Below, piece after piece: positions 24,415-39,156 of a stretch of DNA of 64,000 nt. The DNA is from Myxococcota bacterium. GTDB taxonomy: Bacteria; Myxococcota; XYA12-FULL-58-9; JALHOP01. The position numbers and the translations under genes are program-made. Position 1 is the first letter of the stretch. Each line of letters begins with the position of its first letter. The notes below the pieces were generated by a model that saw only the letters and a list, made by a program, of their open reading frames with translations, did no database searches and was not told the origin of the DNA. The stretch is from NCBI GenBank assembly GCA_041288095.1, contig JBGGMJ010000092.1, positions 57 through 64,056 of the forward strand. Direction: 5' to 3'.

Positions 24415-25902
24415 TCATCCGCCGGTGCCCTTTTCGCCCTCGTCTCGCTTCCGATCGGTCGCGTCCTCATCGGCGGCTTTCTCGATGGCCTTCGCCGACC
24501 AGCCCCCGCCAAGGGCCTGCACCAGGGCGACGGTGCCGGTGAGCTGGTTCTCGAGCACGGTGAGGGCGCTCTGCTCGTTGGTGAGCGCGGTTTGCTGCGC
24601 CGTGATCACCGCCGTGTAGTCGACGGTGCCGGCCTTGTAGCGGTTGGTCTGGATGCGCTCAGCCTCACGCGCCGCGTCGACGGCGCGTTGCTGGAACTGC
24701 GATTGCTCGACGAAGAGGTGCAAGCCGACGAGTTGGTCTTCGACCTGCTGCATCGCGGTGAGCGCGGTCTGGCGATAAGCAGCTACCGTTTGCTCGTATT
24801 GCTCGCGCGCGACCGTGACCTGCCCGGAGCGCCGGCCCCAGTCCCAGACCGTGCCCGCGAGGGTCGGTCCAATCGACCAGAAGAGACTCGCCGTATCGAA
24901 GAGTGACCCGAGCACGGATGACTGGTAACCCAACGACCCCGTGAGCGAGATGGTGGGAAAGTACGCCGCTATAGCGACACCGATCTGAGCATTGGCGGCG
25001 GCCATGCGGCGCTCGGCGGCGGCGACGTCCGGACGGCGCTCGAGCAACACCGACGGCAAGGTGATGGGGACTTCGGGGAGACTGCGCGGCATGTCCGCTA
25101 TGGCGATCGAGATCTCGGACGGCGGCTTGCCCACCAGCACCGCGATGGCGTGCTCGAGACGCGCGCGCTGCACTTTGATGCCGATGGATTGGGCGTGCGC
25201 GCTCTCGAGCTGCGTTTGCGCGAGCGACACGTCCGCTTTGGTGGCGATACCCGCGTCGTACTGATTCTTGGCGATAGTGTACGCGCGTCCATAAGCTTCG
25301 GCTGCGACCTCGAAGAGCCGCCGCTGCTCGTCGCGTGAGCGCAGCTGAAAGTAGGCGGTTGCGAGCTGCGACTGCGCCGAGAGCTTCGCGGAGGCAATGT
25401 CGGCGGCCGACGCTTGGGCTTCCGCCGCGTTGCTCTCGATGGTCCGCCGGATGCGGCCCCAGACGTCGAGCTCCCAGGTGATCCCGGTCGAGGCGTTGTA
25501 GATGGTGCGCGGACCGCCACCCGTGGTGCCGCCACCGACCGTGGCGCCGCCGACGTTGGTGCCTACCGCGCCGCTCGTTCGCCGTACGCCGCCGTTCACA
25601 TTGAGGGCCGGCAAGATGCCGGCTTTCGCGCTCTGCAACACTCCTCGCGCTTCACGATAGGCCGCTTCGGCTTGCTTCAAGTTCTGGTTCGACACCTCGA
25701 CCTGTCGCATGAGCTCGTCGAGCGTCGCATCGGCGAACACCGCCCACCAATCGCCGCGGTCGGCGTCGTCCGCGGGCTCGACGACCTTCCAACCTTCGAT
25801 CTCCTTGTAGCTCGGTGGTTCCGCCGCCTTCGGCTTGTCGTAATCGGGGCCGACCTTGCAGGCCGCGATAGCGAACAGTGAGATGAGCGCGATGCGTTTC
25901 AT
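24415..25902 (-). CDS. RND efflux outer membrane factor lipoprotein (NodT family)
   Basis: Lipobox SLFAIAAC followed by [10 protein letters not shown], and two OEP-like repeats. The ATG overlaps (ATGA) the stop of the upstream permease reading frame. Confidence 0.9.
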
Positions 25903-26042
25903 GCAGTCCTCGCGACGCGCTTCTCAGCGCGCTTGAGTCGCCATTTGTCGAGAGCCAGATAGACGATTGGCGTGGTGTAGAGCGTCAGCGCTTGGCTGAA
26001 GATCAAGCCGCCGACGATGGCGACGCCCAGTGGTTGTCGCAG
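25899..26042 (-). pseudogene. Detached C-terminal 47 codons of the MdtC-like permease, downstream of an in-frame TAG
   Basis: In the same frame directly after TAG (26045-26043) the sequence reads [47 protein letters not shown]. This is the conserved RND C-terminus (compare the paralogue ..[36 protein letters not shown]..). Confidence 0.65.
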
Positions 26043-29000
26043 CTAGGCGCCGTCACCACTGCGCAGGGCCAGCGGCAGCGCTCCCAGCAAGGCCGCGAGC
26101 GTCGTCATCATGATCGGCCGAAAACGCAGCAGGCAGGCTTCGCGGATCGCATCGTGCGGCGACAGCCCGCGATTGCGCTCGGCGTCGAGCGCGAAGTCCA
26201 CCATCATGATGGCGTTCTTCTTGACGATGCCGATGAGCAAGATGATGCCGATGAGCGCCATCAGGTTGAGATCCATACCGACCATGAGCAACGCGATGAG
26301 GGCGCCGACTCCCGCCGAGGGCAGCGTCGACAAGATGGTAATCGGGTGCACGTAGCTCTCGTAGAGCACGCCCAAGACGATGTAGACCGCGAGCAGGGCG
26401 CACAGAATGAGGATGGGCTGGTTCGAGAGAGAGTCGGCGAACGCTTTCGCGGACCCCAAGAATCCACCTTGGATGGTCGACGGTACGCTGATCTCCGCCA
26501 TCTTGGCGCGAATACGGGTGAGCGCGTCGCCGAGCGACGTGCCTGGCAGCAAGTTGAACGAGATGCTGGTGGCGACGAACAACCCTTGGTGATTGACCGA
26601 CAACGGCGTGTTGCTGAAGGTGCGCTCGGCAATCGCGGACAGCGGGATCATCGTGGCGCTGCTCGTGCTCACCGCCGACCCGGTCGACGCCGAGTTGCGG
26701 CTCACGCTCGCGACCTGGTTGGTGGCGCGGTTGCGCGCCGACTCGTCGATGGTCGCCGAGGTGTTCGTCGACACGAAGGTACCGGGCAGCGCATTGGTGC
26801 CGACCGAGCCACGGACCGCGCCGCCGCTGCTCGCGATGTAGATCTCGTCGAGCGCCTGCGGCGTGTCGCGGTACTTCTGCGCCACCTCCATCACCACGTG
26901 GTACTGATTGAGGGTGTTGTAGATCGTCGACACCTGGCGCTGGCCGAAAGCGTCGTAGAGGTTGTTGTCGACCTGCTGCACGGTGAGCCCGTAGCGTGAC
27001 GCGGTATCGCGGTCGATGTTGAGGCGCAGCTCGAGACCGCGGTCTTGGTTGTCGGACTCGACGTCGGCGAGCCCATCGATCGTGCGCAGGGCGCGCACGA
27101 TCTGTGGTGTCCACTCGCGGAGCTCCGCGAGGTTGTCGCCTTGCAAGGTGAATTGATAGAGGCCCGTGCCCGGGCGGCCGCCCATGCGGAACTCTTGCGC
27201 CGGTTGCAGAAAGAGCTGTGCACCCGCGACGTTCGCGAGCTTGCCGCGCAAACGACCGATGACCTGGTCGGCGGACATCTTGCGCTCCGCGAGCGGTCTC
27301 AGATTGGCGAACGTGAAGCCGCCGCCCGTGCCTTGCGCGAAGCCGACGACGCCGTCGATGGCGGGATCCTCCATCATGATACGTTGGGCTTCCGCGAACT
27401 TCTCGCGCAGCGCTTGGAACGAGATGCTCTGATCGGTGCGCAAATTGCCGAGGATGCGCCCGGTGTCCTGCTGGGGAAAAAATCCCTTGGGGATGACTCC
27501 ATAGAGGTAGACGTTGATCGCCACCGTCGCGACCAACGAGAGGCCGACGAGCTTCGGATGCGTCAACGCCCAGCCGAGAGTGCGCTGATAGAAGCGCGCC
27601 ATCGGTCCGAAGATGCGCTCGCCGATGCGGAAGGGAACACTGCTGTCTCCGCCATGGCGAAGCACGTAGGCGCACATCATCGGTGTCGTCGATAGCGACA
27701 CCACGAGCGACACCAGCACCGCGACCGACAAGACCACCGCGAACTCACGGAACAGTCGCCCGATGATGCCGCCCATCATGAGGATCGGCGTGAACACCGC
27801 GATGAGCGAGATGCTCATCGACATGACCGTGAAGCCGACCTCGGAGGCGCCCTGCAGCGCCGCTTGCATGCGCGACATGCCGGCTTCCATGTGGCGCGAG
27901 ACGTTCTCGAGTACCACCACCGCGTCATCGACGACGAACCCGGTGGCGACGGTGAGGGCCATGAGCGAGAGGTTGTTCAGACTGTAGTCGCACAGGTACA
28001 TGACGCCGAAGGTAGCGACGAGCGACACCGGCACGACGACGGCGGGGATGAGCGCCGAGCGCGGGTCTCGCAAGAACAACAGCACCACGCCAATCACCAG
28101 GATTACCGCGATGACGAGCGTGATCTCGACTTCGTGCAGCGAAGCGCGAATCGTCGCCGTGCGGTCGCTGACCGCCAGTAGCGTCATGTCGCTGGGAATG
28201 GCGGCTTGCAGCTCGGGCACGAGCGCACGCACGCGATCGACGGTCCCGATGATGTTGGCGCCGGGCTGGCGCGAGATGACGATGACGACGGCGCGTTGGC
28301 CGTTGTAGAGGCCGATGTTGCGCGTGTCTTCGACCGAATCGATGACCTCGGCGACGTCCGCGAGCGCGACCGCCGCGCCGTTGCGATACGCGATGACGAC
28401 GTCGTGGTAGTCCGCCGCCGTGCGTGCCTGATCATTCAGATAGATTTGATAGCTCTTGCCGTCGGCCTCGATCGCACCCTTAGGGGTGTTCGCGTTGGCG
28501 GACGAGAGAGCCGCGCGCACGTCTTCGAGTCCGATGCCGTACTTGAAGAGCGCGGTTGGGTTGAGCTCGACGCGCACCGCCGGCAGCGAGCTACCGCCGA
28601 CGCGGACGTCGCCCACGCCTTCGACCTGCGACAACTTCTGGCCGATGATGGTCGAGCCGGCGTCGTAGAGCTGACCTTGGCTGCGCGTCTGCGAGGTCAG
28701 CGCCAGCACCAGGATGGGTGCATCGGCGGGGTTCACCTTGCGGTACGTCGGATTGCTGCGCAGGGCCGCGGGTAGATCGGCGCGAGCCGCGTTGATGGCC
28801 GCTTGCACGTCGCGCGCGGCGCCGTCGATGGAGCGCGACAAGCCGAATTGGAGCGTGATGTTGGTCGAGCCGACGGTGCTGGACGAGGTCATCTCGGTGA
28901 CGTCGGCGATGCGGCCCAGGTAGCGCTCGAGCGGAGTCGCGACGCTCGCCGACACCGTCTCGGGGCTGGCGCCGGGGAGCTGCGCCCAGACGTTGATGGT

Positions 29001-29129
29001 CGGAAAATCCACCTGCGGCAGCGGCGATACCGGCAGCAGGAAGAACGCGACGATGCCGGCGAGCAGCAGACCGATGGTGAGCAGCGTCGTCGCCACGGGG
29101 CGCTTGATGAAGAGCGCCGACGGGTTCAC
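26043..29129 (-). CDS. RND multidrug efflux permease (MdtC/AcrB family), truncated by an in-frame amber codon
   Basis: 1028-aa, 12-TM RND permease ([25 protein letters not shown]..). The start overlaps the upstream permease stop. The reading frame continues past the TAG to 25899. Confidence 0.9.
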
Positions 29130-32100
29130 GCGGGCTCTCCCAGTTGGGTGTCCGTCGCGGCGGGCGACGACTTCCAGCGACGCGCCAAGCGATCGAAGTA
29201 CAGATAGATCACCGGCGTCGTGAACAGCGTGAGCACCTGTGACACCAAGAGCCCACCGACGATGGTGAGGCCGAGTGGATTGCGGAGCTCACTGCCCATG
29301 CCCTGACCGAGCATGAGCGGGAGGGCGCCGAAGAGCGCCGCGAAGGTGGTCATCATGATCGGACGGAAGCGCAACAGCGCCGCCTCGCGAATGGCCTCGT
29401 GCGGCGACCTGCCGTGCTCGCGCTCCGCTTCCAGCGCGAAGTCGATCATCATGATCGCGTTCTTCTTGACGATGCCGATGAGCAGCACGATGCCGATGAT
29501 GGCGATGACGCCGAGGTCCTTGCCGGCGAGCAAGAGCGCGAGCAACGCGCCGATGCCCGCGGACGGCAGCGTCGACAAGATGGTCACCGGATGGATGAAG
29601 CTTTCGTAGAGGACGCCGAGGATGATGTACATGGTGACGATCGCCGCGATCACCAAGATGAGCTCGTTCGCCAAAGCGGCCTGAAAGGCGAGCGCCGCGC
29701 CTTGGAACCGCGACACCACGCTCGCGGGCAGGCCGATCTCCGCCTCGACCTTGCGAATGGCATCGACGGCGGCGCCGAGCGAGACACCGGGCGCCAGGTT
29801 GAACGAGATGGTGGCCGCCGGGAACTGCGCGAGATGCGAGATTTGCAGCGCCACCGGGCGTTCTTCGACGCTCGCGATAGCGGACAACGGCACCTGACCC
29901 CCGGTCGCGGCGGGCAAATACAAGTTGTCGAGCGCGTTGACGGAGCGTTGAAACTCGGGAGCCGCTTCGAGAATGACGCGGTACTGGTTCGACTGCGAAT
30001 AGATGGTGCTGACGATGCGCTGGCCGAACGAGTCGTAGAGCGCGTTGCCGACGGTGGCTGGGCTTATGCCGAAGCGCGACGCGGTCGGGCGGTCGATTGT
30101 GATGTAGAGCGAACGGCCGCCGTTGGAGAGGTCACTCGCGACGTCGGCGAGCTGCGGCAGGTCGCGGAGCTTCTCGACGAGCCTTGGCGTCCAGACGTTG
30201 AGCTCGGTGAGCGACGCGTCTTGCAACGTGAGCTGGTACTGCGTGCGCGAGATGCGCGAATCGATCGTCAGATCCTGCACGGGTTGCAGATAGAGCGAGA
30301 TGCCAGGGATATCGCGGGCCCGGTCGGTGATGCGACGAACGATCTCCGCGGCCGTGGCGTCACGCTTACCGTGCTCCTTGAGCGAGATCTGCACGCGGCC
30401 CGTGTTGATGGTGGCATTGGTTCCGTCGATGCCCACGAAGGACGATAGGTTCTCGACGTCGGGATCCTCGAGAATGACGTCCGCCAAAGCGTGCTGGCGC
30501 TCGGCCATGGCGGCGAAGCCGATGGACTCGTCGGCTTCGGTGACGCCCTGAATGAGCCCAGTGTCCTGGACCGGGAAGAAGCCCTTGGGCACGACGAGAC
30601 AGAGCAGGGCCGTAAGCGCCACCGTCCCGACCGCGACGAGCAGGGTCATCCGTTGGCGCTCGAGCACCCAGTCGAGGGCCACCGCGTACTGCTCGACGAC
30701 CCAATCGAACCAGATCTGGATGCGCTTCTTCTTGGCGCCGTGACCATGGCTCTTCAAGAGCCGCGCGCACAGCATCGGCACCAGCGACAACGACACCACG
30801 GCCGAGATGAGAATGGTGACCGCGAGCGTGATCGCGAACTCGCGAAACAAGCGGCCGACGACGTCACCCATGAAGAGGAGAGGGATGAGCACGGCGATGA
30901 GCGACACCGTGAGCGAGATGATGGTGAAGCCGATCTGGCCGGCGCCCTTGAGCGCGGCTTCGAGCGGTGACTCGCCCTCCTCGAGGTAGCGGGCGATGTT
31001 CTCGATCATGACGATGGCGTCGTCGACCACGAAGCCGGTGGCGATGGTGAGCGCCATCAGCGATAGGTTATTGAGGCTGAAGCCGCAGGCGTACATCACA
31101 GCGAAGGTCCCGACGATCGACAGCGGCACCGACAAGCTCGGGATCAAGGTGGCGCGCAGGTCACCCAGGAACAGGTAGATGACCAAGACCACGAGCGCGA
31201 TCGACACGAGCAGCTCGAGTTGCACATCGTCGACCGAGGCGCGGATGGTCGTCGTACGGTCGGTGAGCACGTCGATGTCGATGCCCGCGGGCAGGTTGCT
31301 CCGCAATTGCGGCAGCAGCTCCTTGATGGCGTCGACCGTTTGGATGACGTTCGCGCCCGGCTGACGCTGAATGTTGAGAACGATGCCCGGCGTCTTGTCG
31401 ACCCAGGCAATCAGCTTCACGTTCTCGGCGTCTTGGGCGATCTCCGCCACGTCGGAGAGGCGGACGGGCGCGCCGTTGCGGTAGGCGATGACCAGGTCGC
31501 CGTAGGCCGCGGCGTTGGGCAGCTGATCGTTGGCGTTGATGGTGTAAGAGCGCAGCGGACCGTCGAGCGTGCCCTTCGGCGAGTTGACGTTGGCGTTGGC
31601 GATGGTGGTCCGCAGGTCGTCGATGGCGAGCCCGTAGCCGGCGAGGGCTCTGACGTTGGCGCGGATGCGCACGGCGGGGCGCTGCCCTCCGCCCATGCGG
31701 ACGATGCCGACGCCGGGGAGCTGTGAGATCTTCTGAGCGAGCCGGGTCTCGACGATGTCCTGCACCTGGGGGAGCGGCAGTGTCTTCGAGGTGGCGACCA
31801 AGGAGAGGATGGGCGCGTCGGCGGGATTCACCTTGGCGTAGACCGGCGGCGCCGGCAGATCGCTCGGCAACAGGTTACCCGCGGCGTTGATGGCCGCCTG
31901 CACCTCTTGCTCGGCGACGTCGAGCGCCATGTCCAGATTGAACTGCAGCGTGAGCACCGAGGCGCCCGCCGAGCTCGTGCTCGCCATCTGCGTCAAGCCG
32001 GGGATCTGGCCGAATGTACGCTCGAGCGGAGCGGTCACCGACGAGGTCATGACCTCCGCGGAAGCACCGGGATAGAAGGTGCTGATCTGGATGGTGGGAT

Positions 32101-32224
32101 AGTCGACCTGCGGTAGCGCCGAGATGGGGAGCTGGCGGTACGCGACGATGCCCACCAGCATGATCGCGACCATGAAGAGCGTCGTCGCGACCGGCCGGAG
32201 GATGAATGGCCGGGAGGGGATCAT
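29126..32224 (-). CDS. RND multidrug efflux permease (MdtB/AcrB family)
   Basis: 1032-aa RND permease ([25 protein letters not shown]..). It has the conserved C-terminal ..[36 protein letters not shown]. Confidence 0.92.
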
Positions 32225-33504
32225 TGGACCGGGCTTATGGCCTTCGGTGAGCGACGATCAGCGGTCGCGTTCCGGTCATCGGCGTTCGGCTCTCGGCCGT
32301 CGGCGCTCGGCGTTCGGCCATCGATCTTCGGCGCTTCCGATTTCGGCGCGTCCGATGTCATCACCTTGGCCCCGTCACGCAGACGATCGGTCCCCTCGAC
32401 GGCGACCTGCTCGCCACCGTCGAGACCCTGCAAAACGGCGATGCGGCCTTCGAACGCCGGTCCGAGCTTCACCGGCCGCGTCTTCGCCGTATCGCCTTCG
32501 ATGACGTACACGAACGTGCCGTCGGCGCCCCGCTGCACTCCCGCGGTCGGCATGATGACGGCGTTGCTCAGGGTGTCGACCACGATGCGGACGTTCACGA
32601 ACTGGTTCGGTGTGAGCGTCTCGTCGGCGTTCTCGAACATGGCGCGCATCTTCACGGTGCCGGTGGTGGTGTCGATCACGTTGTCGATCGTGGAGAGGGT
32701 GCCCTCTGCGAGCGCGACGTCTCCGCTCCGATCGTAGACGGTCACTTTGAGCTGGGCGCCCGAGCGGAACCGCTTGGAGACCGCCGCGAGCTCGCCTTCG
32801 GGGACCGGGAAGACGACGGAGATCGGATGCAGCTGCGTGATGACGACGATGCCGGCGGCATCACCGGCCGCGACGTAGTTGCCGACGTCGACCTTGCGCA
32901 AACCGACACGACCATCGACCGGCGCCGTGATGCGGGCGAACGACACGTTCACCCGCGCCGCGGCGATCTGACCCTGGTCTGACTTGAGCGTCGCCTGCGC
33001 CTGGCGGACCGTCGCGCGCTGGGTGTCGAGCTGCTGCCGCGAGACCGAGTCTTCTTCGATGAGCTTCTCGTAGCGGCTGAGATCCATCTCGGCGTTTTTG
33101 AGCGCTGCTTCATCGCGAGCGAGCGCACCCTCTGCTTGGTCGAGAGCGGCCTGATATGCCCGCGGATCGATCTGCGCGAGCAGGTCGCCCTTCTTGACGT
33201 CCTGGCCTTCGCGGAAGCCGATCTGGGTGATCTGACCGGCCACCTGACTGCGGACGGTGACGGTAGCGAGCGAGGTCACGGTGCCCAGCGCGTCGAGCAT
33301 GATGGGCAGGTCACCCCGTTCGGCGATCGCCGTGCGTACGGGAGTGGGACCTTGGGGCGGCTTCTTGCCGCGCCCTTCGGCTGCGGACTGGATGCGGCGG
33401 ACGATGAGGACGACCGCGAGGACGGCCACGAGGACCGGTATGGCAATGCGTAGATACTTCTTCATCAACGCGCCAATAGGCAGGTTTTGGCGCAGTTGAA
33501 CCAT
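32221..33504 (-). CDS. RND efflux periplasmic adaptor (membrane fusion protein, MdtA family)
   Basis: N-terminal TM anchor, then biotinyl-lipoyl/hairpin/beta-barrel MFP pattern (..[45 protein letters not shown]..). An alternative start is ATG 33465 (MKKYL). Confidence 0.9.
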
Positions 33505-33607
33505 GGTTCTGGGGGTCTCGGATTACAAGGGGGAACAGCGTTAATAACAATGAAGCCAAGGGTTTCGCGCGTCTGCGACATCGCGGCGCACAGATGGCAT
33601 TGCCCTC

Positions 33608-35098
33608 GTGGCATCGGAAAATAGGCGGACCGTGGCGCGCGCGATCCCGATAACCGGGCTCCACCAGAGGTTTATCGTGATCAAGCGCATCGAACCCATC
33701 GCTGCTGTCCAACCAGTCCAGGCCGCGGGCGCGACCCCGACCTACAGCACCGCCACCAATCCGCCGAGCATCCGCTTCAACATCCACCCGCATACGCTGA
33801 CGCTCACCGGCGAACAGATCGAGGCCGCCGCCGCCAAGCCCGCCGGTACCGTGACCGTCTTCGCGGTCGGCGGGAATCACCCGCACAACCTGAACCTCAC
33901 CACCGAGGAAGCGCAGGCGCTCGTGCGTGACGGCAAGGTGCAGTCGAAGGCTGACGGCGGCCACACGCACATCGTCAATTTCCAACGACAGGCGAGCGGC
34001 GATGTCACCGCCCTGATCGAGCCGGCGGCACCCGCGGCTCCCGGTTCACTTCGTCGCGCGATCGCTTCGCAGGCGACGTCCGGCTTCCCCCAGGGCGGCA
34101 TCACCATCAAGGACCCGCTGCACTACTTCGTGCGCTCGTCGGTCGATGGCCAGTACATGGGCCGCGGCTTCAAGGCCGGAGAACAGCGCGCGATGGTGGT
34201 CACGGACACCGCCACGGGCTCGACCTTCACTTTCGACTTCGGCGCCTACGACCCGTCGTTCGCCAAGACGTTCCTGTACTTCCAGGGCTTCGACGAGAAC
34301 AAAAAGGAGATGTGCTTCGTCGTGCCGATGAGCTTTTTCAAGGAGCAGGCGGCGTCGCTCTTGCCGACCGCTAACGCGGTCACGGGCCCGGTGCACAAGA
34401 CCTTCACGCTCGAGTGGTTCGCAAAGCACGCGCCCAACAAGCTCACGCGCATCCCGGGGGTCTTGGTCTATCAGGACCTGCCGCTCCATGGCCGCTTCGC
34501 CGTGCAGTGCACGGGTCAGGTTTGGGATGAGGCAGTGAAGCCGCCGACCGACCTCGAATACATTCCGAAGGCGGGGAGCTTCGCCGACACCGACGAGATC
34601 TGGCTGACGCCGCTTTACACGCCGACGACGCCCATCAAGATCCCGTCACCGCTGGTCGGCAACGTGCAGCTCAATGACCAAGGCGACCGGGTGGTCGCGC
34701 AGCGCATCGTCGGCTCGGGCGCCGAGGCCAAGTGCGAGTTCGTGGTCTACGAAGTTCGCGGCGAAGTAGCGCCCGGCGGTACTCCGAGCTTGCACGAGGT
34801 CTACAAGCTCGCCGCCCAAGCGGACAAGGCCGACATGCTCGGCCACAACCTCCTCACCTTCGAGCGCCGCGCTGGCGCCGAGCGCTCCGAGGTCGTGCTG
34901 CACGACATCCGCAAGGGCAAGGACATCATCCTCGCGTCCGCGAAACCGGACTGCGTCTACAAGTTCCCGCACTTCGTGGCCGAGCCCAACGGCGGCGGCA
35001 TCGAAGTCCGCTTCGTCGAGCAGCAATGGACGAAGGACGCCGCGGGCAACTACACGGGTGCGACGAACGTCTTCAAGAGCGTCCGCATCGTCAACTGA
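33608..35098 (+). CDS. Hypothetical protein with N-terminal His-x-His motifs
   Basis: Long ORF on the opposite strand between the RND operon and the sigma gene. Motifs are IHPHTLTLTGEQIEAA, GNHPHNLNLTTEEAQAL and GGHTHIVNF. The real start may be GTG 33677 (VIKRIEP). No signal peptide and no family were recognised. Confidence 0.55.
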   Translation: MASENRRTVARAIPITGLHQRFIVIKRIEPIAAVQPVQAAGATPTYSTATNPPSIRFNIHPHTLTLTGEQIEAAAAKPAGTVTVFAVGGNHPHNLNLTTEEAQALVRDGKVQSKADGGHTHIVNFQRQASGDVTALIEPAAPAAPGSLRRAIASQATSGFPQGGITIKDPLHYFVRSSVDGQYMGRGFKAGEQRAMVVTDTATGSTFTFDFGAYDPSFAKTFLYFQGFDENKKEMCFVVPMSFFKEQAASLLPTANAVTGPVHKTFTLEWFAKHAPNKLTRIPGVLVYQDLPLHGRFAVQCTGQVWDEAVKPPTDLEYIPKAGSFADTDEIWLTPLYTPTTPIKIPSPLVGNVQLNDQGDRVVAQRIVGSGAEAKCEFVVYEVRGEVAPGGTPSLHEVYKLAAQADKADMLGHNLLTFERRAGAERSEVVLHDIRKGKDIILASAKPDCVYKFPHFVAEPNGGGIEVRFVEQQWTKDAAGNYTGATNVFKSVRIVN

Positions 35099-35131
35099 CG
35101 TTTCGGAGTCCGGCAGCGCGCTCCGCGCTGC

Positions 35132-36016
35132 CTATGATCCGAGCGAGTCTTCGAGCAGCCTATGCAGCTTGTCGATGACGCGGGCGTGCAGTCGACTCGT
35201 CCATGACTTCGACAAGCCGAGCTTCTCGCCGACTTCCTGCAGCGACATCTCTTTGTAGTAGTACATCTCGAGGAGCTGACGTTCCTGCTCCGAGAGCTTC
35301 TTGATGGTCTCGCGAACGAGGGACCGCGCTTGCTCGAGGCCGAGATTTTCCTCGGCGCCGGGCGAACCGTCGTCCTTGATCTGCAGACCTTCGGTGCCGT
35401 CGATCGTCGTGATGTAGACCGCCGCGAGGCCTTGAACCGCCGACGCGAGGTCTTGGACGGCGTGCTCGAAGGGGTTCGCCGGTGCTTCGGTGCCCGACTC
35501 TTGCGCCGCCGCGACCTGCGACAAGTACTCGTTGGCGCGCTCTTCGAAGCGGGCGCGCGCGTACTCGCTGCGGCTCATCCAGCCCATGCCGCGGAGGCCG
35601 TCGTAGATGGCGCCGCGGATGCGGTAGTACGCGAACGTCATGAAGTTCGCGCCGAACTGCGGGTCGTAGCGGTCGGCCGCTTCGAGCAGACCGATCATGC
35701 CGTATTCGACGAGATCCTCGAAGTCGATCTCCTTGGCGACCGTCTTCTTGATCTTGCCCGCGATGGAGCGGACGTACGGCATGTACTTTTCGATCAGGAC
35801 CTGACGAGGCAGGGCCTTGGGATCGTCGCTCGGCGACGCTCCGCCCTTCTCGATGGTTTTGTCGGCAGCCTTGTCCGCGACCTTACCGCTGGTTGCCTCG
35901 GTGCCGGCGCGCATGGTCTCGCTCGCGTCACCCTTGGTGGCTGCCGCTCCGGCCGCCGCAGCGGACGCGGGAACTTTGCCGGCTGGCTTCTTTGCTTTCG
36001 CCCCAGACTCGCTCAT
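35132..36016 (-). CDS. fliA: FliA/WhiG-type (sigma-28-like) RNA polymerase sigma factor with A/K-rich N-terminal extension
   Basis: Region 2: ..LVEYGMIGLLEAADRYDPQFGANFMTFAYYRIRGAIYDGLRGMGWMSRS (compare E. coli FliA ..AVQRIRGAMLDELRSRDWVPRS). Region 4: ..LLEMYYYKEMSLQEVGEKLGLSKSWTSRLHARVIDKLH (compare ..[35 protein letters not shown]). Confidence 0.8.
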   Translation of the reverse strand: MSESGAKAKKPAGKVPASAAAAGAAATKGDASETMRAGTEATSGKVADKAADKTIEKGGASPSDDPKALPRQVLIEKYMPYVRSIAGKIKKTVAKEIDFEDLVEYGMIGLLEAADRYDPQFGANFMTFAYYRIRGAIYDGLRGMGWMSRSEYARARFEERANEYLSQVAAAQESGTEAPANPFEHAVQDLASAVQGLAAVYITTIDGTEGLQIKDDGSPGAEENLGLEQARSLVRETIKKLSEQERQLLEMYYYKEMSLQEVGEKLGLSKSWTSRLHARVIDKLHRLLEDSLGS

Positions 36017-36128
36017 TCGAACTCAGGCTCCCAGGACAGGCTTATGGCTCGTGGGACATTACACCCCACACGCCTGCAAGGCGAGCGCCGTCGACGCTCT
36101 CCTTGTGACACGGGTACGTTTGACCGCT

Positions 36129-36608
36129 TTAACGTTGGACCGGCGATCGTAGGGTCCAGTCGGTGACTTCATCGACGAGCTGAGCCAAGACCGGCACCCC
36201 GTCGAGCTGCGACGCAATGGCGTCGTAGAGGGTTTCGAGCTCGCGCTCGTCCGCCTGGTCGAAGATCTTTCCGAACTTCTTCCCGCGGATGATGCACTGG
36301 GCGAACATACGGGCCCGTGCTTTGCGGTCGGCGCTCGGATTCTTGCGCAGCAAGATGGCGAATTGCTCGGCGACCTGGGCGAGCTGCTGGTTCGTGAACT
36401 GGATGGGCCCGACGTTCGGCCTGTTCTTCGTAGCGATGCCGGCAAGACCTTGCGCGATGTTGGCCTTGACGAAGCTGTCCATCACCTTCTCGGCGCCGGC
36501 TCCCTTGGCGGAAGTCTCCGTGGTCTTGGCGTCGGTCTTCTCGGCGCGATCGGCTTGTCCAGGCTGCGTATTGCCGACCTGAGGGCGGCCATCACCAATC
36601 TTCGTCAT
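36129..36608 (-). CDS. Hypothetical 159-aa protein with disordered N-terminus (candidate secreted regulator/anti-sigma; speculative)
   Basis: ORF located between the TPR chaperone gene and the sigma factor gene. The N-terminal ~45 aa are low in complexity (MTKIGDGRPQVGNTQPGQADRAEKTDAKTTETSAKGAG..). No family was recognised. Confidence 0.5.
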   Translation of the reverse strand: MTKIGDGRPQVGNTQPGQADRAEKTDAKTTETSAKGAGAEKVMDSFVKANIAQGLAGIATKNRPNVGPIQFTNQQLAQVAEQFAILLRKNPSADRKARARMFAQCIIRGKKFGKIFDQADERELETLYDAIASQLDGVPVLAQLVDEVTDWTLRSPVQR

Positions 36609-36738
36609 AAGTTCTCCGGAAAAGTCAGGAGTCGCAGGCTGCGTTTGTCGGAACGCTTCGCACTGCGGTCATGGGGCCGTATGGCTTGTCTTGTCAACGT
36701 GGTCCACGCGAATAGCGCGGAATGCTAGCACCAACAGG

Positions 36739-37155
36739 TCAACCGAAGATACCGAGCTCGTGCGCTTCTTTCAGGTACTTCGCGAACTGACCCGCGGGCC
36801 CTTCGGGCTCGAGAGCGATTGCCTTGTCGACCGCTTGAACGGCGTCCTTCGGCTTCTTGAGGAAGAAGAGCGCCTCGCCGATCGAGGCGTGTGCCGCGGC
36901 GGAGCCCGGATTGAGCTCGGCGGCCTTCTGATGCGCTTTGAGCGCCGGCGTGAAGCGGCCCATCGAGAAGTAGAGGTTGCCGAGCGCGAGGTGCGGGACC
37001 TCGCTGTGCGGGATGAGCGCCGAGACCCCCGCGAAGACCTCTTCGGCTTCCTTGTTCTTCCCGAGCTCCATGTAGAGGTAGCCGGCCTCGAGGAGCAGGG
37101 TTACGTCGCGTTGGGGGACCGGAATAATGCCCTGGATGATGAGATCTTCAGCCAT
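36739..37155 (-). CDS. TPR-repeat protein, T3SS class II chaperone-like (LcrH/SycD/CesD type)
   Basis: 138 aa with three TPR units (..GYLYMELGKNKEAEEVFAGV..LGNLYFSMGRFTPALKAHQKAAELNPGSAAAHASIGEALFFLKKPKDAVQAVDKAIALEP). It lies directly downstream of the needle-like gene. Confidence 0.6.
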   Translation of the reverse strand: MAEDLIIQGIIPVPQRDVTLLLEAGYLYMELGKNKEAEEVFAGVSALIPHSEVPHLALGNLYFSMGRFTPALKAHQKAAELNPGSAAAHASIGEALFFLKKPKDAVQAVDKAIALEPEGPAGQFAKYLKEAHELGIFG

Positions 37156-37242
37156 GTGACGTCGTTATACTCCCTGGTCGGCTTGGCGTGGCAAGGTACA
37201 TAAACGAGTTTGGGGGGTGTGGGTTGCGGGGCCACGAGGTCG

Positions 37243-37274
37243 CAAAAAAAACGGGGCCCCAATGGAGCCCCGTT
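37243..37274 (-). terminator. Rho-independent terminator after the needle-like gene
   Basis: The minus-strand transcript reads CGGGGC-UCCAUUGGG-GCCCCG followed by U8 (plus-strand A-run 37244-37251). It lies 56 nt after the stop at 37330. Confidence 0.7.
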
Positions 37275-37329
37275 TTGACGAACGATGAGAAGTCGCGAGT
37301 GGCGGGCGCGGCCGGAGCCGCGCGCTCTA

Positions 37330-37887
37330 TTAACGAACGTTGTTGATAGAGTTCTTCGCCGTATCGTGCTTCGTCTTCATGATGTTCGACAGCGTCGTGA
37401 ACTGACGGTTGTCGGCTTGCATGTTCTGCTGCAGGCCCAAGTACTGCAGGTTGAAGCTCTGGTTGAGCTCCTGCATGCGCTTGGTCTCTTGGAGCAGAAT
37501 GGCTGACGAGTCACCCGAGGCTGCGAGACCGTCGAGCGCCGTGTTGCCGGTGGCATAGCCGCCGGTGCCGGCCATTGCACCACCGCCGGTGACCAGACCG
37601 CCGCCGCTCGACATGGTGCCGACGCTGGCGCCGCTGATGCCCGTGGCCCCTTGGCCGGTGGCGTGCGACTTGAGGGTACCTACACCCGAGATGGCCGCGG
37701 AGAGAACCGCGCCGCCGGGGATGTACGGAGCCGCCAACTGTCCGGCGTTGAGCACCGCATTGGTGGTGCGCGAAAGGCCGGTGGACAGGACGCTGCCGAA
37801 GTCCGTCTTAGGAGCCTGACGGGCACGGCTCTGGTCGATATCGACCCGAAGTCCTGACTGTTGTGGCTGGTCAATCTTGGAATCCAT
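37330..37887 (-). CDS. Needle-filament family protein (SctF/MxiH/PrgI-like C-terminus) with long Gly/Ala/Ser-rich N-terminal extension
   Basis: The last 33 aa, QQNMQADNRQFTTLSNIMKTKHDTAKNSINNVR, align without gaps to the MxiH C-terminus QSKLSEYTLYRNAQSNTVKVIKDVDAAIIQNFR. Shared positions are Q1, SN15-16, K19, D23, I29, N31 and terminal R. AGGAG RBS is present. Length is 185 aa, versus ~80 aa for classical needle subunits. Confidence 0.55.
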   Translation of the reverse strand: MDSKIDQPQQSGLRVDIDQSRARQAPKTDFGSVLSTGLSRTTNAVLNAGQLAAPYIPGGAVLSAAISGVGTLKSHATGQGATGISGASVGTMSSGGGLVTGGGAMAGTGGYATGNTALDGLAASGDSSAILLQETKRMQELNQSFNLQYLGLQQNMQADNRQFTTLSNIMKTKHDTAKNSINNVR

Positions 37888-38003
37888 CGCCGACTTCTCC
37901 TCTCAAAACTGCTGCTAGGCTACTCGCTAGCACGAGTCGATTATTGGTAGCGCCGCGCGTGCTAACTACTCGCTGCGCTTTCGTTCGTCTTTGCTGCCTA
38001 ACC

Positions 38004-38030
38004 TTATCGATGGGGCCGGATTCGGGTTGT
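38004..38030 (-). promoter_or_regulatory. Candidate sigma-28-like promoter of the needle-like gene (ACAACC-N15-CGATAA)
   Basis: The minus strand reads TC-ACAACC-CGAATCCGGCCCCAT-CGATAA-G, 117 nt upstream of the ATG at 37887. The architecture is the same as at 24263-24237. Confidence 0.45.
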
Positions 38031-38152
38031 GAAAATGACGTGCCAAGCGTCAGTTCGAATGTACGCAACAAAATTTAGTGTAGGCGTAGCGGGCACTTAC
38101 GAACACGCGTGAGCACGGTCGCGCTGTCAGCCTGTCGCGTAACATGTTGATT

Positions 38153-38488
38153 TTACTTCGTTCCTTGGGTTTCTAGCTCAGCCTTTGTCTGGAACAAATA
38201 CTCCATCAGATCGGCGGCGCGCTCGACCGCGATCATGGCTTTTTTGACTGCCGCCTTGTCCTTCTGGGCCTTCTTGTCCTCGTCGAAGGTCGCCAGACCG
38301 TCGAGGATGTCGGTCAGCTTGGCGTTGATGGTGTCGTGGGTCTCGTTCTCGAGGATGCGCTCGATGCGCGCAAACCCCAGCGAGCGCTCTTCTTCGGGCT
38401 CGGCCTTCTGTGGACCTCGGCGTTGCACCGTTGGCTTGCGCGTGTCGGCGATCTTGAAGGACTGAAGATTCCCGCCTTTGTTGGCCAT
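38153..38488 (-). CDS. Hypothetical small charged protein (111 aa)
   Basis: ATG with GGAG upstream. The product is helical and K/E-rich (..FDEDKKAQKDKAAVKKAMIAVERAADLMEYLF..). No family was recognised. Confidence 0.5.
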   Translation of the reverse strand: MANKGGNLQSFKIADTRKPTVQRRGPQKAEPEEERSLGFARIERILENETHDTINAKLTDILDGLATFDEDKKAQKDKAAVKKAMIAVERAADLMEYLFQTKAELETQGTK

Positions 38489-38508
38489 AAACGCTCCAAG
38501 CTCTGCTG

Positions 38509-39156
38509 TCAGTTCACGCAGCTCGCGCTGCCGTCGTCTTCTGGAGATGTACCATCGCAGAGCTCACGTAGGTTGGTACAGCTATCCGCGTCCAAATCGA
38601 GAATTTCCGCTATCGTCGTCTGGTCGCGGCAGTCCGCGGCTACCTCGGTGGTGCCGGCGTCGGTGGCGATGAGCGAGCGTGCGAAGCAAAGGGCGCTGGC
38701 GAGCGGCCCCTTGGGGCCGTTGAGCAGGTCACGCAGATCCGCCACGTCGTCGTCGGTGTCGACGTACATCCCGGTGATGTCGTCGTCGCTGAAGGTGACC
38801 GAGACGGTGCCTTCGCTGTCCCTGAGTCGCTGCGGCGTCAGGTCGGCCTGGGTAATGGCGTAGCGCACGGGTAGGGCGCGGCCGTCGCCTGGTACGGCAA
38901 AGCGGAGCACCAGGAAGCGGGTGATGCCCGTGGGGATGTCGCCGCACGTTCCGCTGGCGCGGCCGGCGCTATCGACGGTCAAGTTGCAGGGCGCGAGGTT
39001 GCCGCTGATGAACAGGGTCGCTGCTAGCCCCGCCGGCACCGTGGAGCCGCAGGTGAGGTCCGATGCCTGGGGCATGACGAGCTGTACCTCGACGTCGTCC
39101 CCACCGCAGGCGCATGTTGCCGCTATCGCGGACAAGAGGAAGGCGCGCCTGATCAT
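38509..39156 (-). CDS. Hypothetical Cys-rich lipoprotein
   Basis: The internal ATG gives MIRRAFLLSAIAATCAC (lipobox). The start overlaps the stop of the upstream gene. The track ORF 5' extension (to 39291) is R-rich and was rejected. Confidence 0.55.
   Translation of the reverse strand: MIRRAFLLSAIAATCACGGDDVEVQLVMPQASDLTCGSTVPAGLAATLFISGNLAPCNLTVDSAGRASGTCGDIPTGITRFLVLRFAVPGDGRALPVRYAITQADLTPQRLRDSEGTVSVTFSDDDITGMYVDTDDDVADLRDLLNGPKGPLASALCFARSLIATDAGTTEVAADCRDQTTIAEILDLDADSCTNLRELCDGTSPEDDGSASCVN

Follow-up and report, generated by a model that had tools for sequence, protein, structure and literature searches.

A sigma-28-class promoter with an altered -35 box before a needle-like gene of a Myxococcota type III secretion cluster, and its probable sigma factor

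Which promoter switches on the subunit genes of a non-flagellar type III secretion (T3S) cluster in Myxococcota, and which sigma factor reads it? The question is raised by a stretch of 64,000 nucleotides from a Myxococcota bacterium (contig JBGGMJ010000092.1 of assembly GCA_041288095.1), referred to here as the window. In it, a gene for a 185-aa needle-like protein and a 111-aa gene upstream of it, both on the minus strand, are separated by a 265-bp gap (37888-38152) with a GC content of 54.0%, compared with 62.7% in the needle-like coding sequence and 65.4% in the window. As originally predicted, this lower-GC gap holds a copy of the pattern ACAACC-N15-CGATAA, ACAACCCGAATCCGGCCCCATCGATAA, at 38004-38030 (-). 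The other copy, ACAACCAGCGCTGCTCCTGTCCGATAA at 24237-24263 (-), lies upstream of sctI; a pattern search of the window found these two matches, whether exact or with up to one mismatch allowed, and no third. Dinucleotide shuffles of the window gave a mean of 0.11 matches, and 2 of 100 shuffles reached two.

We conclude with high confidence that the motif is a genuine promoter, which is conserved across Myxococcota and akin to those that drive late flagellar genes. The fuller reading, to which we give a probability of roughly 0.78, is that it is a sigma-28-class promoter read by a FliA/WhiG-like sigma factor whose gene belongs to the same cluster (the linked sigma), that it yields a monocistronic needle-like mRNA of ~0.7 kb, and that the same sigma acts at sctI and at promoters dispersed over the genome.

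Genome-wide enrichment, conservation and transcript boundaries

The metagenome-assembled genome (MAG) that contains the window (G000; 5.85 Mb, 212 contigs, 66% GC, ~90% complete) carries [AG]CAACC 27 times at N15 before CGATAA and 14 times at N16, with 0-1 occurrences at each of the spacings N10-N14 and N17-N21 and 0-3 in reversed-sequence controls. With shorter cores the picture is the same: CAAC starts 20 nt upstream of CGATA 164 times and 21 nt upstream 93 times, as against 7-43 times at other offsets, so that there are 257 CAAC-N16/17-CGATA sites in the genome versus ~20 per control spacing. A chance match is rejected by this enrichment at a specific spacing. The genomic consensus is cGCAAC-N14-gcCGATA(A/C) (upstream g 52%, C 58%), of which ACAACC is a minor variant; before CGATAA at the main offset, ACAAC occurs 12 times and GCAAC 59 times. 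No second -35 class was enriched before CGATA(A/C/T) in this genome, and no TAAA class before CGATA(A/C). A second sigma-28 class of TAAAG type was considered and rejected, its raw counts being inflated by coding bias and an offset-based k-mer test showing no enrichment.

By rough gene calls based on GC3 (4,334 genes, 85% coding), 170 of the 257 sites are intergenic, compared with 47 of 247 at control spacings. Where an intergenic site has a same-strand gene downstream, it usually lies less than 100 nt from the start of the longest open reading frame (115 of 160). Chance alone would account for ~9 intergenic hits, so that roughly 160 of the 170 would be real promoters. Only two strong intergenic sites fall inside the window. 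The original prediction, that two secreted-subunit genes share a promoter, therefore holds as far as the promoter is concerned, given its conservation and the transcript ends described below, and fails in its restriction to two genes; that the motif is private to secretion genes is rejected by the 257 sites.

The prediction that the motif would be conserved upstream of orthologous needle-like genes is upheld throughout the order and in most of the phylum. A variant of TTTTT-xCA(A/G)CC-N15-xGATAA(G/T)GTA lies 75-155 nt before the needle-like start in 28 of 30 loci, and the motif precedes the gene in 56 of 80 further loci from named records, with Archangium gephyra reading GCAACTGTTCCGGACGATCACCGATAA. 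The motif-less loci among these 80 are mostly hits to the C-terminal domain only, in records labelled as other phyla; the rest are Anaeromyxobacter/Anaeromyxobacteraceae loci (L088, L095, L106) and L056, which have no sigma gene in their flanks. In an alignment of 13 promoter regions from the same order, the only conserved columns besides the Shine-Dalgarno/ATG end are the T-tract (T26-T29 invariant or nearly so), CAACC, GATAA and the G-T that follows. Judged from this alignment, the conserved block is a phylogenetic footprint of the promoter, in which the T-rich tract is a possible UP-like element. At the needle-like gene the -10 region reads ATCGATAA.

The majority gene order in relatives, on one strand, is 111-aa gene, needle-like gene, tetratricopeptide repeat (TPR) gene, small open reading frame, sigma gene and sctI. 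Of 34 related loci, 21 have the second copy of the motif in the interval from the sigma gene to sctI. None of the 34 carries the consensus before the TPR or sigma gene, and an autoregulatory motif ahead of the TPR, 159-aa and sigma genes is rejected on this count; a weak GCAAC-N16-CGTTTA was seen by eye upstream of the TPR gene in the window.

One locus without a linked sigma has a different arrangement. L035, which is the same as L056 (G043:C400), has a sigma-54-like TGGCAC-N5-TTGT before the needle-like gene, with sctI directly after it. This suggests that the promoter was replaced when the linked sigma was lost or never gained.

Transcripts were sought in three metatranscriptomes from one soil study (X3, X26 and X27), whose contigs come from relatives 90-95% identical to the window; these contigs are unstranded and give no true depth profile, so that all statements are at contig-level resolution. 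The needle-like gene is covered at depth 15-45, and the 111-aa gene at 4-7 where the needle-like gene has 20-45. Contigs of the three runs give no coverage of 38003-38146. The longest needle-like contig, of 560 nt in X27, reaches the position equivalent to G38002, 2 nt past CGATAA, and the remaining ones stop at 37944 and 37891. The original prediction had placed a transcript 5' end near 37995-38000; the relatives supply a contig boundary at 38002, at a resolution that does not place the +1 to the base. At the other end, needle-like contigs stop at ~37290-37340, before or at the hairpin that follows the gene. Beyond it the depth is 0 over the TPR gene, compared with 24-44 over the needle-like gene; this zero and the 5-12 over the 159-aa and sigma genes were measured in X3. 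Both the strong terminator proposed shortly after the needle-like gene and its role in separating that gene from the TPR gene are thus corroborated, the former by the hairpin itself (Table 1) and the latter by the drop in depth.

At sctI, contigs of 582 and 602 nt have a depth of 31-35 and a third a depth of 50. They span 23633-24218, with none upstream of the motif and a depth of 0 over sctJ. One of them runs into GATCGGAAGA, which resembles an Illumina adapter and therefore suggests a real molecule end near 24218. Contig coverage and ends at the two genes thus describe short, abundant, separately terminated units with a 5' boundary just past the motif. Comparison of the metatranscriptomes with another contig that has several sites (L136) gave mostly noise from the conserved genes of other organisms; a single site there has contig ends ~41 nt downstream of the motif.

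These boundaries bear on whether the motif could instead be a transcription-factor site, or have some other non-promoter role, its likeness to sigma-28 promoters being coincidental. The T-tract and CAACCGAAA block before the needle-like gene is longer than the genome-wide -35 consensus, and an extra protein could bind there. However, the motif consists of two short blocks at one fixed spacing and in one orientation, 25-120 nt before starts at ~170 sites; RNA contigs start directly past it at two genes; and a promoter scan of 35000-38600 found no sigma-70-like promoter that could serve in its place. We regard a non-promoter role as highly improbable.

FliA-like sigma factors and the reader of the motif

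That the motif is a promoter leaves the choice of sigma factor, for which the linked sigma is the first candidate. Its best family match is TIGR02479 (163.7 bits, E = 5.3e-48, positions 1-223 of the 224-position profile). Sigma70_r2 covers residues 74-143 and r4 residues 238-284, with ~95 residues between them, and E. coli FliA can be aligned with the protein along its whole length save for an N-terminal extension of ~70 aa, which is the architecture of a group 3 sigma factor. Synteny of its gene with the needle-like gene extends across the phylum. The cluster in which it sits is non-flagellar, with neither the FlgM partner nor the flagellar late genes expected of a classical FliA, and searches of the neighbouring 159-aa and 111-aa proteins with the FlgM family gave no hit at E up to 1.

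The linked sigma is one of three FliA-like clades in the window's genus, the others being a canonical FliA and an orphan paralogue on contig C127. The canonical FliA of congeners scores ~215 bits and adjoins flagellin and FlgEFG genes. The likely flagellin promoters of the congeners G001 and G002 read TAAAGG- or TCAAGG-N15-CGATGA, and that of a genome from another family (G005) reads TAAAGG-N15-CGATGC. Flagellin, FlgEFG and canonical FliA occur together in one locus in 35 of 61 related genomes (e.g. G001:C2:514918-539226, G002:C2 and G003:C59). The assembly of G000 lacks all three, which reflects either a loss or a missing contig in a MAG that is 90% complete. The orphan gene (275 aa, G000:C127:21744-22571, +) is directly followed by an 80-aa gene for an anti-sigma factor of the FlgM family (PF04316, 2.4e-7), the pair spanning 21744-22853, with no flagellar genes nearby.

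Could one of these relatives, the C127 FliA-like/FlgM-like pair or the flagellar FliA of congeners, be what reads the sigma-28-class promoter? Genomes of the window's genus have two or three FliA-like genes each, the C127 gene has as its neighbour a member of the FlgM family, the classical partner of a secretion-coupled sigma-28, and motif counts peak (59-88) in the very genus that holds all these paralogues. The distribution of the motif nevertheless points elsewhere. Counted as exact matches to GCAAC-N16-CGATAA, which undercounts in low-GC genomes, the median number of sites is 17 in genomes with the linked sigma, 4 in those with canonical FliA only and 1 in those with neither (Mann-Whitney p = 0.0015 for linked versus canonical-only and 2e-6 for linked versus neither; 8e-4 among phylum-level relatives only). 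Genomes that have the linked sigma alone and no flagellin keep their sites (11 versus 0 at the control in G010, 51 versus 3 in G015, 33 versus 0 in G004), while flagellated genomes with canonical FliA alone (G024, G032, G042, G055 and G059) have 0-4. G000 has 59 sites, even though its assembly is without canonical FliA, flagellin and FlgEFG. Most apparent exceptions (G004, G029, G030, G052 and G056) do carry a sigma of the linked type, hidden by a threshold or by contig ends, and G043, which has no sigma of this type, has zero sites.

The -35 boxes and the proteins themselves weigh against these paralogues as well. The congeners' flagellin promoters have TAAAGG or TCAAGG at -35. In the recognition helix of region 4.2, every linked sigma examined has an SKSW signature (SKSWTSRLHAR within the order, window included, with SKSWMSRKHAQ and SKSWTCRRHAQ among the variants in more distant genomes), whereas E. 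coli FliA reads ESRVSQLHSQ, the flagellar FliA of one congener ESRACQLIGE and the C127 paralogue DSRVCQLHTQ. The changed positions would align with the residues of sigma-70 that contact the -35 box. A change there would fit an altered -35 box with an unaltered -10 box. Because its region 4.2 helix is FliA-like, the C127 paralogue is predicted to use a TAAA-type -35 box; moreover, paralogues of its type were recognised in families f1 and f3 only, while the motif is phylum-wide. We therefore consider it unlikely that another FliA paralogue is the reader.

A promoter with AAC at -35 also recalls the extracytoplasmic function (ECF) sigma factors. Consensus ECF promoters include TGAAAC-N16-CGTA and TGCAAC-N17-CGTG, usually with the autoregulated gene of the ECF sigma itself downstream. 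GCAAC-N16-CGAT resembles both, as an AAC -35 box, a CG-rich -10 box and a 16-nt spacer would in an ECF-type promoter such as the hrp box of HrpL, and ECF sigma factors control T3S in Pseudomonas syringae and Bordetella. When the motif was examined for this, AAC was present but the -10 element gcCGATAa was the full one of sigma-28 and not CGT. By the rough gene calls, 121 genes of G000 have a site at most 200 nt upstream, and none of the 121 is sigma-like, hence no autoregulated ECF gene. The cluster encodes no ECF sigma; the abundance of the motif tracks the linked group 3 sigma, whose r2 and r4 stand ~95 residues apart in a full-length alignment with FliA. An ECF-type promoter is, in our estimate, very unlikely.

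We return to the linked sigma as the probable reader, with the evidence correlative and confounded by phylogeny. Several observations weigh against it, or against the wider account built on it. The linked sigma scores below the curated TIGR02479 cut-off of 189.6 bits, and its proposed -35 box matches none described for sigma-28. G000 has another FliA-like gene, next to an FlgM-like one, and congeners have a third. G037 has the linked sigma and yet 1 site versus 1 at the control, while G023 has 12 sites versus 0 and no sigma within the 8 kb examined. The comparison of genomes is confounded by phylogeny, and its exact pattern undercounts in low-GC genomes. Without the motif at the sigma or TPR gene there is no autoregulatory signature. 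The RNA belongs to relatives at 90-95% identity and not to the window's strain; their 5' boundaries lie at unequal distances past the -10 box (2 nt at the needle-like gene, 19 nt at sctI), too coarse to fix the +1, and in X25, a run of uncertain type, one contig spans the needle-like promoter. Finally, that the linked sigma binds here, and the precise base at which transcription begins, are inferred, while the motif with its fixed-spacing enrichment, placement before genes and conservation, the correlation of its abundance with the sigma gene over the genomes, and the contig-level transcript boundaries in relatives were observed.

With these points in mind, the proposed mechanism would run as follows. 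RNA polymerase carrying the linked sigma, the gene of which lies 1.3 kb downstream, would recognise CAACC at -35 and CGATAA at -10 and initiate shortly after the -10 box, within or close to 37995-38002. This would yield a ~0.7-kb monocistronic mRNA for the 185-aa protein, stopped at the hairpin and its U8 tract. The same sigma would drive sctI and ~150 or more further promoters, acting as the cluster's own master sigma. In origin it would be a FliA paralogue that kept the -10 specificity and the spacing while its -35 preference shifted from TAAAG to GCAAC. Short terminated transcripts would supply the needle-like and rod-like subunits in large quantity, and the dispersed gene set would be switched on simultaneously. 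As the sigma gene lies downstream of the needle-like gene, read-through of the terminator could feed it. The TPR chaperone-like protein, the disordered 159-aa protein and the FlgM-like protein encoded elsewhere are candidates for secretion-coupled control.

The genes behind the motif and comparison with known systems

The T3S system of Myxococcus xanthus (T3SS*, MXAN_2434-2464) has been called needleless, its needle homologues and effectors have been stated to be unknown, and the papers that say so describe no regulator (PMC10433427, PMC12075869). No sigma factor for the myxobacterial T3SS* was found in the literature searched. Like that system, the cluster in the window has SctJ, SctI, SctN, SctL and LcrH-like chaperones, lacks a secretin and is conserved in Myxococcota, and it corresponds to the needleless T3SS* of the literature. 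Archangium and Myxococcaceae MAG loci show the order needle-like gene, TPR gene, sigma gene and sctI, with the motif before the needle-like gene. Secretion clusters that have the needle-like gene conserved in them include that of Archangium gephyra and those of MAGs from the Archangiaceae and Myxococcaceae (L085, L086, L090, L111 and L116).

The proteins encoded behind the motif differ as a group from the rest of the proteome. In the first 40 residues, after start refinement, leucine makes up 7.5% in the regulon and 10.2% in the background (p 1.6e-9), serine, threonine, proline and glutamine together 25.1% versus 21.2% (p 2.6e-6), and a strongly hydrophobic N-terminal stretch occurs in 5% versus 20% (p 4.7e-5), so that few of the proteins begin like one with a signal peptide. 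A Pfam scan of 40 downstream proteins left 36 without a family at E <= 0.001; the 40 were partly picked by eye, with several obviously enzyme-like proteins left out, and in a strictly consecutive batch 8 of 10 had no family. Recognisable members include an Flp pilin, a trypsin-like protease, an SCP2 protein and an alpha/beta hydrolase, to which inspection by eye added subtilisin-like, amine-oxidase-like and other enzymes. The regulon proteins may be T3S substrates, as their composition matches the repertoire expected of such proteins.

Two individual genes deserve mention. An 83-aa Flp/Fap-type pilin is encoded behind a motif site at G000:C23:7871-8122 (-); no tad genes stood out by eye near it, and no family search was made there. 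In M. xanthus, a Tad-like pilus works with the T3SS*. The other, on contig C10 behind site 82327 (-), encodes a protein of ~402-412 aa with no Pfam family that ends in ...TSNVSKTLHEMAMTAVRNIR, a second needle-like C-terminal helix. This protein may be a tip, translocator or filament-like partner.

Among known promoters, those of sigma-28 are closest. The sigma-28 promoter TAAAGTTT-N11-GCCGATAA has the register TAAAGT-N15-CGATAA. The motif shares with class 3 promoters such as that of fliC in E. coli and Salmonella the -10 element GCCGATAA (here gcCGATAa), and the register of the boxes is equal, with only N15/N16 enriched here and N15 in the flagellin promoters of relatives; the classical form of the promoter stands before the flagellin genes of congeners. 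Like class 3 promoters, it is predicted to drive a small, abundant, secreted subunit of filament or rod type from a short transcript. The linked sigma is of the same family as FliA by its best hidden Markov model hit. Unlike sigma-28 promoters, the motif has GCAAC or xCAACC at -35 and not TAAA (TAAAGTTT); unlike FliA, the linked sigma is below cut-off, carries its own region 4.2 sequence, belongs to a non-flagellar T3S cluster and has no FlgM found beside it; and unlike the flagellar class 3 genes, the regulon consists mostly of non-flagellar genes of unknown function. Because of the different -35 box and the score under the cut-off, we file the linked sigma as a divergent FliA paralogue.

In Bdellovibrio bacteriovorus, FliA is associated with TTAAG-N16-CCGATA at 92 of 140 attack-phase promoters (PMC3627812). 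Both cases have a sigma-28-type motif at at least ~100 promoters in a predatory lineage, with many uncharacterised proteins behind it. They differ in that a single flagellar FliA has expanded its reach in Bdellovibrio, with the flagellar genes kept in the regulon (PMC3627812). Here, a separate paralogue with its own -35 box is tied to a T3S cluster and coexists with canonical FliA in relatives.

A second parallel is HrpL of Pseudomonas syringae and Erwinia. It recognises the hrp box GGAACC-N15/16-CCACNNA, which has been used genome-wide to find effectors. By analogy, the linked sigma would likewise be an alternative sigma encoded by the cluster, its promoter standing before a needle or pilus subunit, secretion genes and dispersed genes. 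The two are not of one kind, HrpL being an ECF (group 4) factor and the linked sigma a FliA-like group 3 factor, with unrelated -10 boxes. The dispersed targets of HrpL are secreted, as the regulon members here may be.

Taken to its furthest, the comparison leads to a tentative proposal that we hold with less than even confidence: the linked sigma may be the master regulator of the T3SS* secretome, with the subunits and ~100 or more orphan genes, few of whose products have a signal-peptide-like N-terminus, under its promoter and the orphan proteins as substrates or effectors, release by export of an inhibitor as a possibility (the 159-aa protein or an FlgM-like one), and the changed -35 box as insulation from flagellar FliA. 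If this is true, flagellar class 3 logic survives in a non-flagellar relative of the injectisome, and the motif marks the long-sought substrates of a system linked to predation.

Together, the conserved promoter and the cluster's sigma gene provide a regulatory handle on the T3SS*, testable in cultivable Myxococcota, and so simple a pattern lists candidate co-regulated genes genome-wide, as the hrp box did for the effectors of plant pathogens. The locus would also be a natural example of sigma-factor duplication followed by -35 divergence at an unchanged promoter geometry; such divergence would keep the flagellar and secretion regulons apart in one cell. It fits the view that non-flagellar T3S systems descend from the flagellum, with part of the control circuit kept.

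Features of the locus and further observations

The coordinates of the promoter parts, the genes and the terminators are collected in Table 1.

Table 1. Features of the promoter region and the secretion cluster, in window coordinates.
Feature	Position	Strand	Evidence or remark
T-rich tract, CATTTTC here, TTTTTT in most same-order relatives	38031..38037	-	Abuts the -35 box upstream
-35 box ACAACC (core CAAC 38026-38029)	38025..38030	-	Exact match; fixed spacing genome-wide; conserved before orthologues
-10 box CGATAA (sigma-28 -10 core)	38004..38009	-	GATAA invariant in the 13-sequence alignment
Predicted transcription start zone, conserved GGTAG past the -10 box	37995..38002	-	RNA contig end at G38002
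5' untranslated region, ~105-115 nt, Shine-Dalgarno GAGAGGAG ahead of ATG	37888..37994	-	Only the Shine-Dalgarno/ATG end conserved
Needle-like gene, 185 aa	37330..37887	-	N-terminal block conserved; linker rich in Gly/Ser; long helix at the C-terminus, ending ...SNIMKTKHDTAKNSINNVR
Intrinsic terminator, 13-bp GC-rich stem, 3-nt loop, U8	37240..37276 (about)	-	~53 nt past the needle-like stop
LcrH/SycD-type TPR protein, class II T3S chaperone-like	36739..37155	-	Pfam TPR; syntenic in most loci
159-aa protein, first ~39 residues disordered, then helical	36129..36608	-	Conserved within the order only
FliA/WhiG-like sigma factor, 294 aa	35132..36016	-	TIGR02479 best family; syntenic with the needle-like gene
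111-aa conserved gene, upstream	38153..38488	-	Syntenic in most loci; separate lower-depth transcription
sctI-like gene, 163 aa	23635..24126	-	Weak PF17001 hit; short abundant unit
Terminator-like hairpin and T-run past sctI	23569..23615	-	Sequence; RNA contigs end ~23633-23650
SctJ	22667-23545	-	Family match, non-flagellar T3S cluster
FliG-like	21615-22637	-	Family match, T3S cluster
SctL/FliH	18178-19032	-	Family match, T3S cluster
SctN	16805-18148	-	Family match, T3S cluster

Orthologues of the needle-like protein are found in 52 of 61 related genomes, and a wider search of genome contigs gave 432 relatives. AlphaFold predicts a C-terminal helix at residues 127-184 with block-mean pLDDT of 73-87, the rest being of low confidence and the pTM of the whole model 0.21. 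The protein has no match in Pfam or NCBIfam at E up to 0.1 and 0.01, the SctF family T3SS_needle_F included, and a profile built from 15 orthologues drew no PDB hit at E up to 10. Only the C-terminal helix motif and the genomic context thus liken it to a needle protein. The C-terminal 55 residues recur at 63-78% identity in records with labels from other phyla (Acidobacteriota, Chitinophagaceae and others).

The hairpin after the needle-like gene has a centroid energy of -22.2 kcal/mol and a z-score of -2.8; a simple terminator scan missed it. A hairpin with a T-run follows the gene in 18 of 45 related loci, with stems unrelated in sequence. The TPR protein has a weak hit to TIGR02552 LcrH_SycD (1.8e-9), below the cut-off. 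The 159-aa protein has no Pfam, NCBIfam or PDB match and a model of pLDDT 60.6 and pTM 0.46; an FlgM-like identity is rejected for want of Pfam or PDB support and with a model of low confidence.

Ahead of the needle-like gene, the 5' untranslated region came near the threshold of no Rfam family, sub-threshold hits coming from the terminator only, and a structured RNA in it is rejected on this ground and on its lack of conservation beyond the Shine-Dalgarno/ATG end. A high-scoring motif-like site, CACAACAGTCAGGACTTCGGGTCGATAT at 37839 (-), covers codons 8-19 of the needle-like coding sequence; as it is not conserved in congeners, it is treated as a probable chance match.

The 11-mer GTCCGCGATAG, often lengthened to GTCCGCGATAGCG, occurs in ~117-140 copies in G000, with ~4 expected. 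Of 140 copies (e.g. C1:35534 and C2:13379), 120 lie inside coding regions, with unconserved flanks; it is an over-represented oligomer.

In the window's genus, the sigma gene and sctI stand on either side of a block (24415-35098) made up of an RND efflux operon and a gene of 496 aa whose family is unknown. Since most other Myxococcota loci have 130-350 bp between the two genes, the block looks like an insertion into the secretion cluster.

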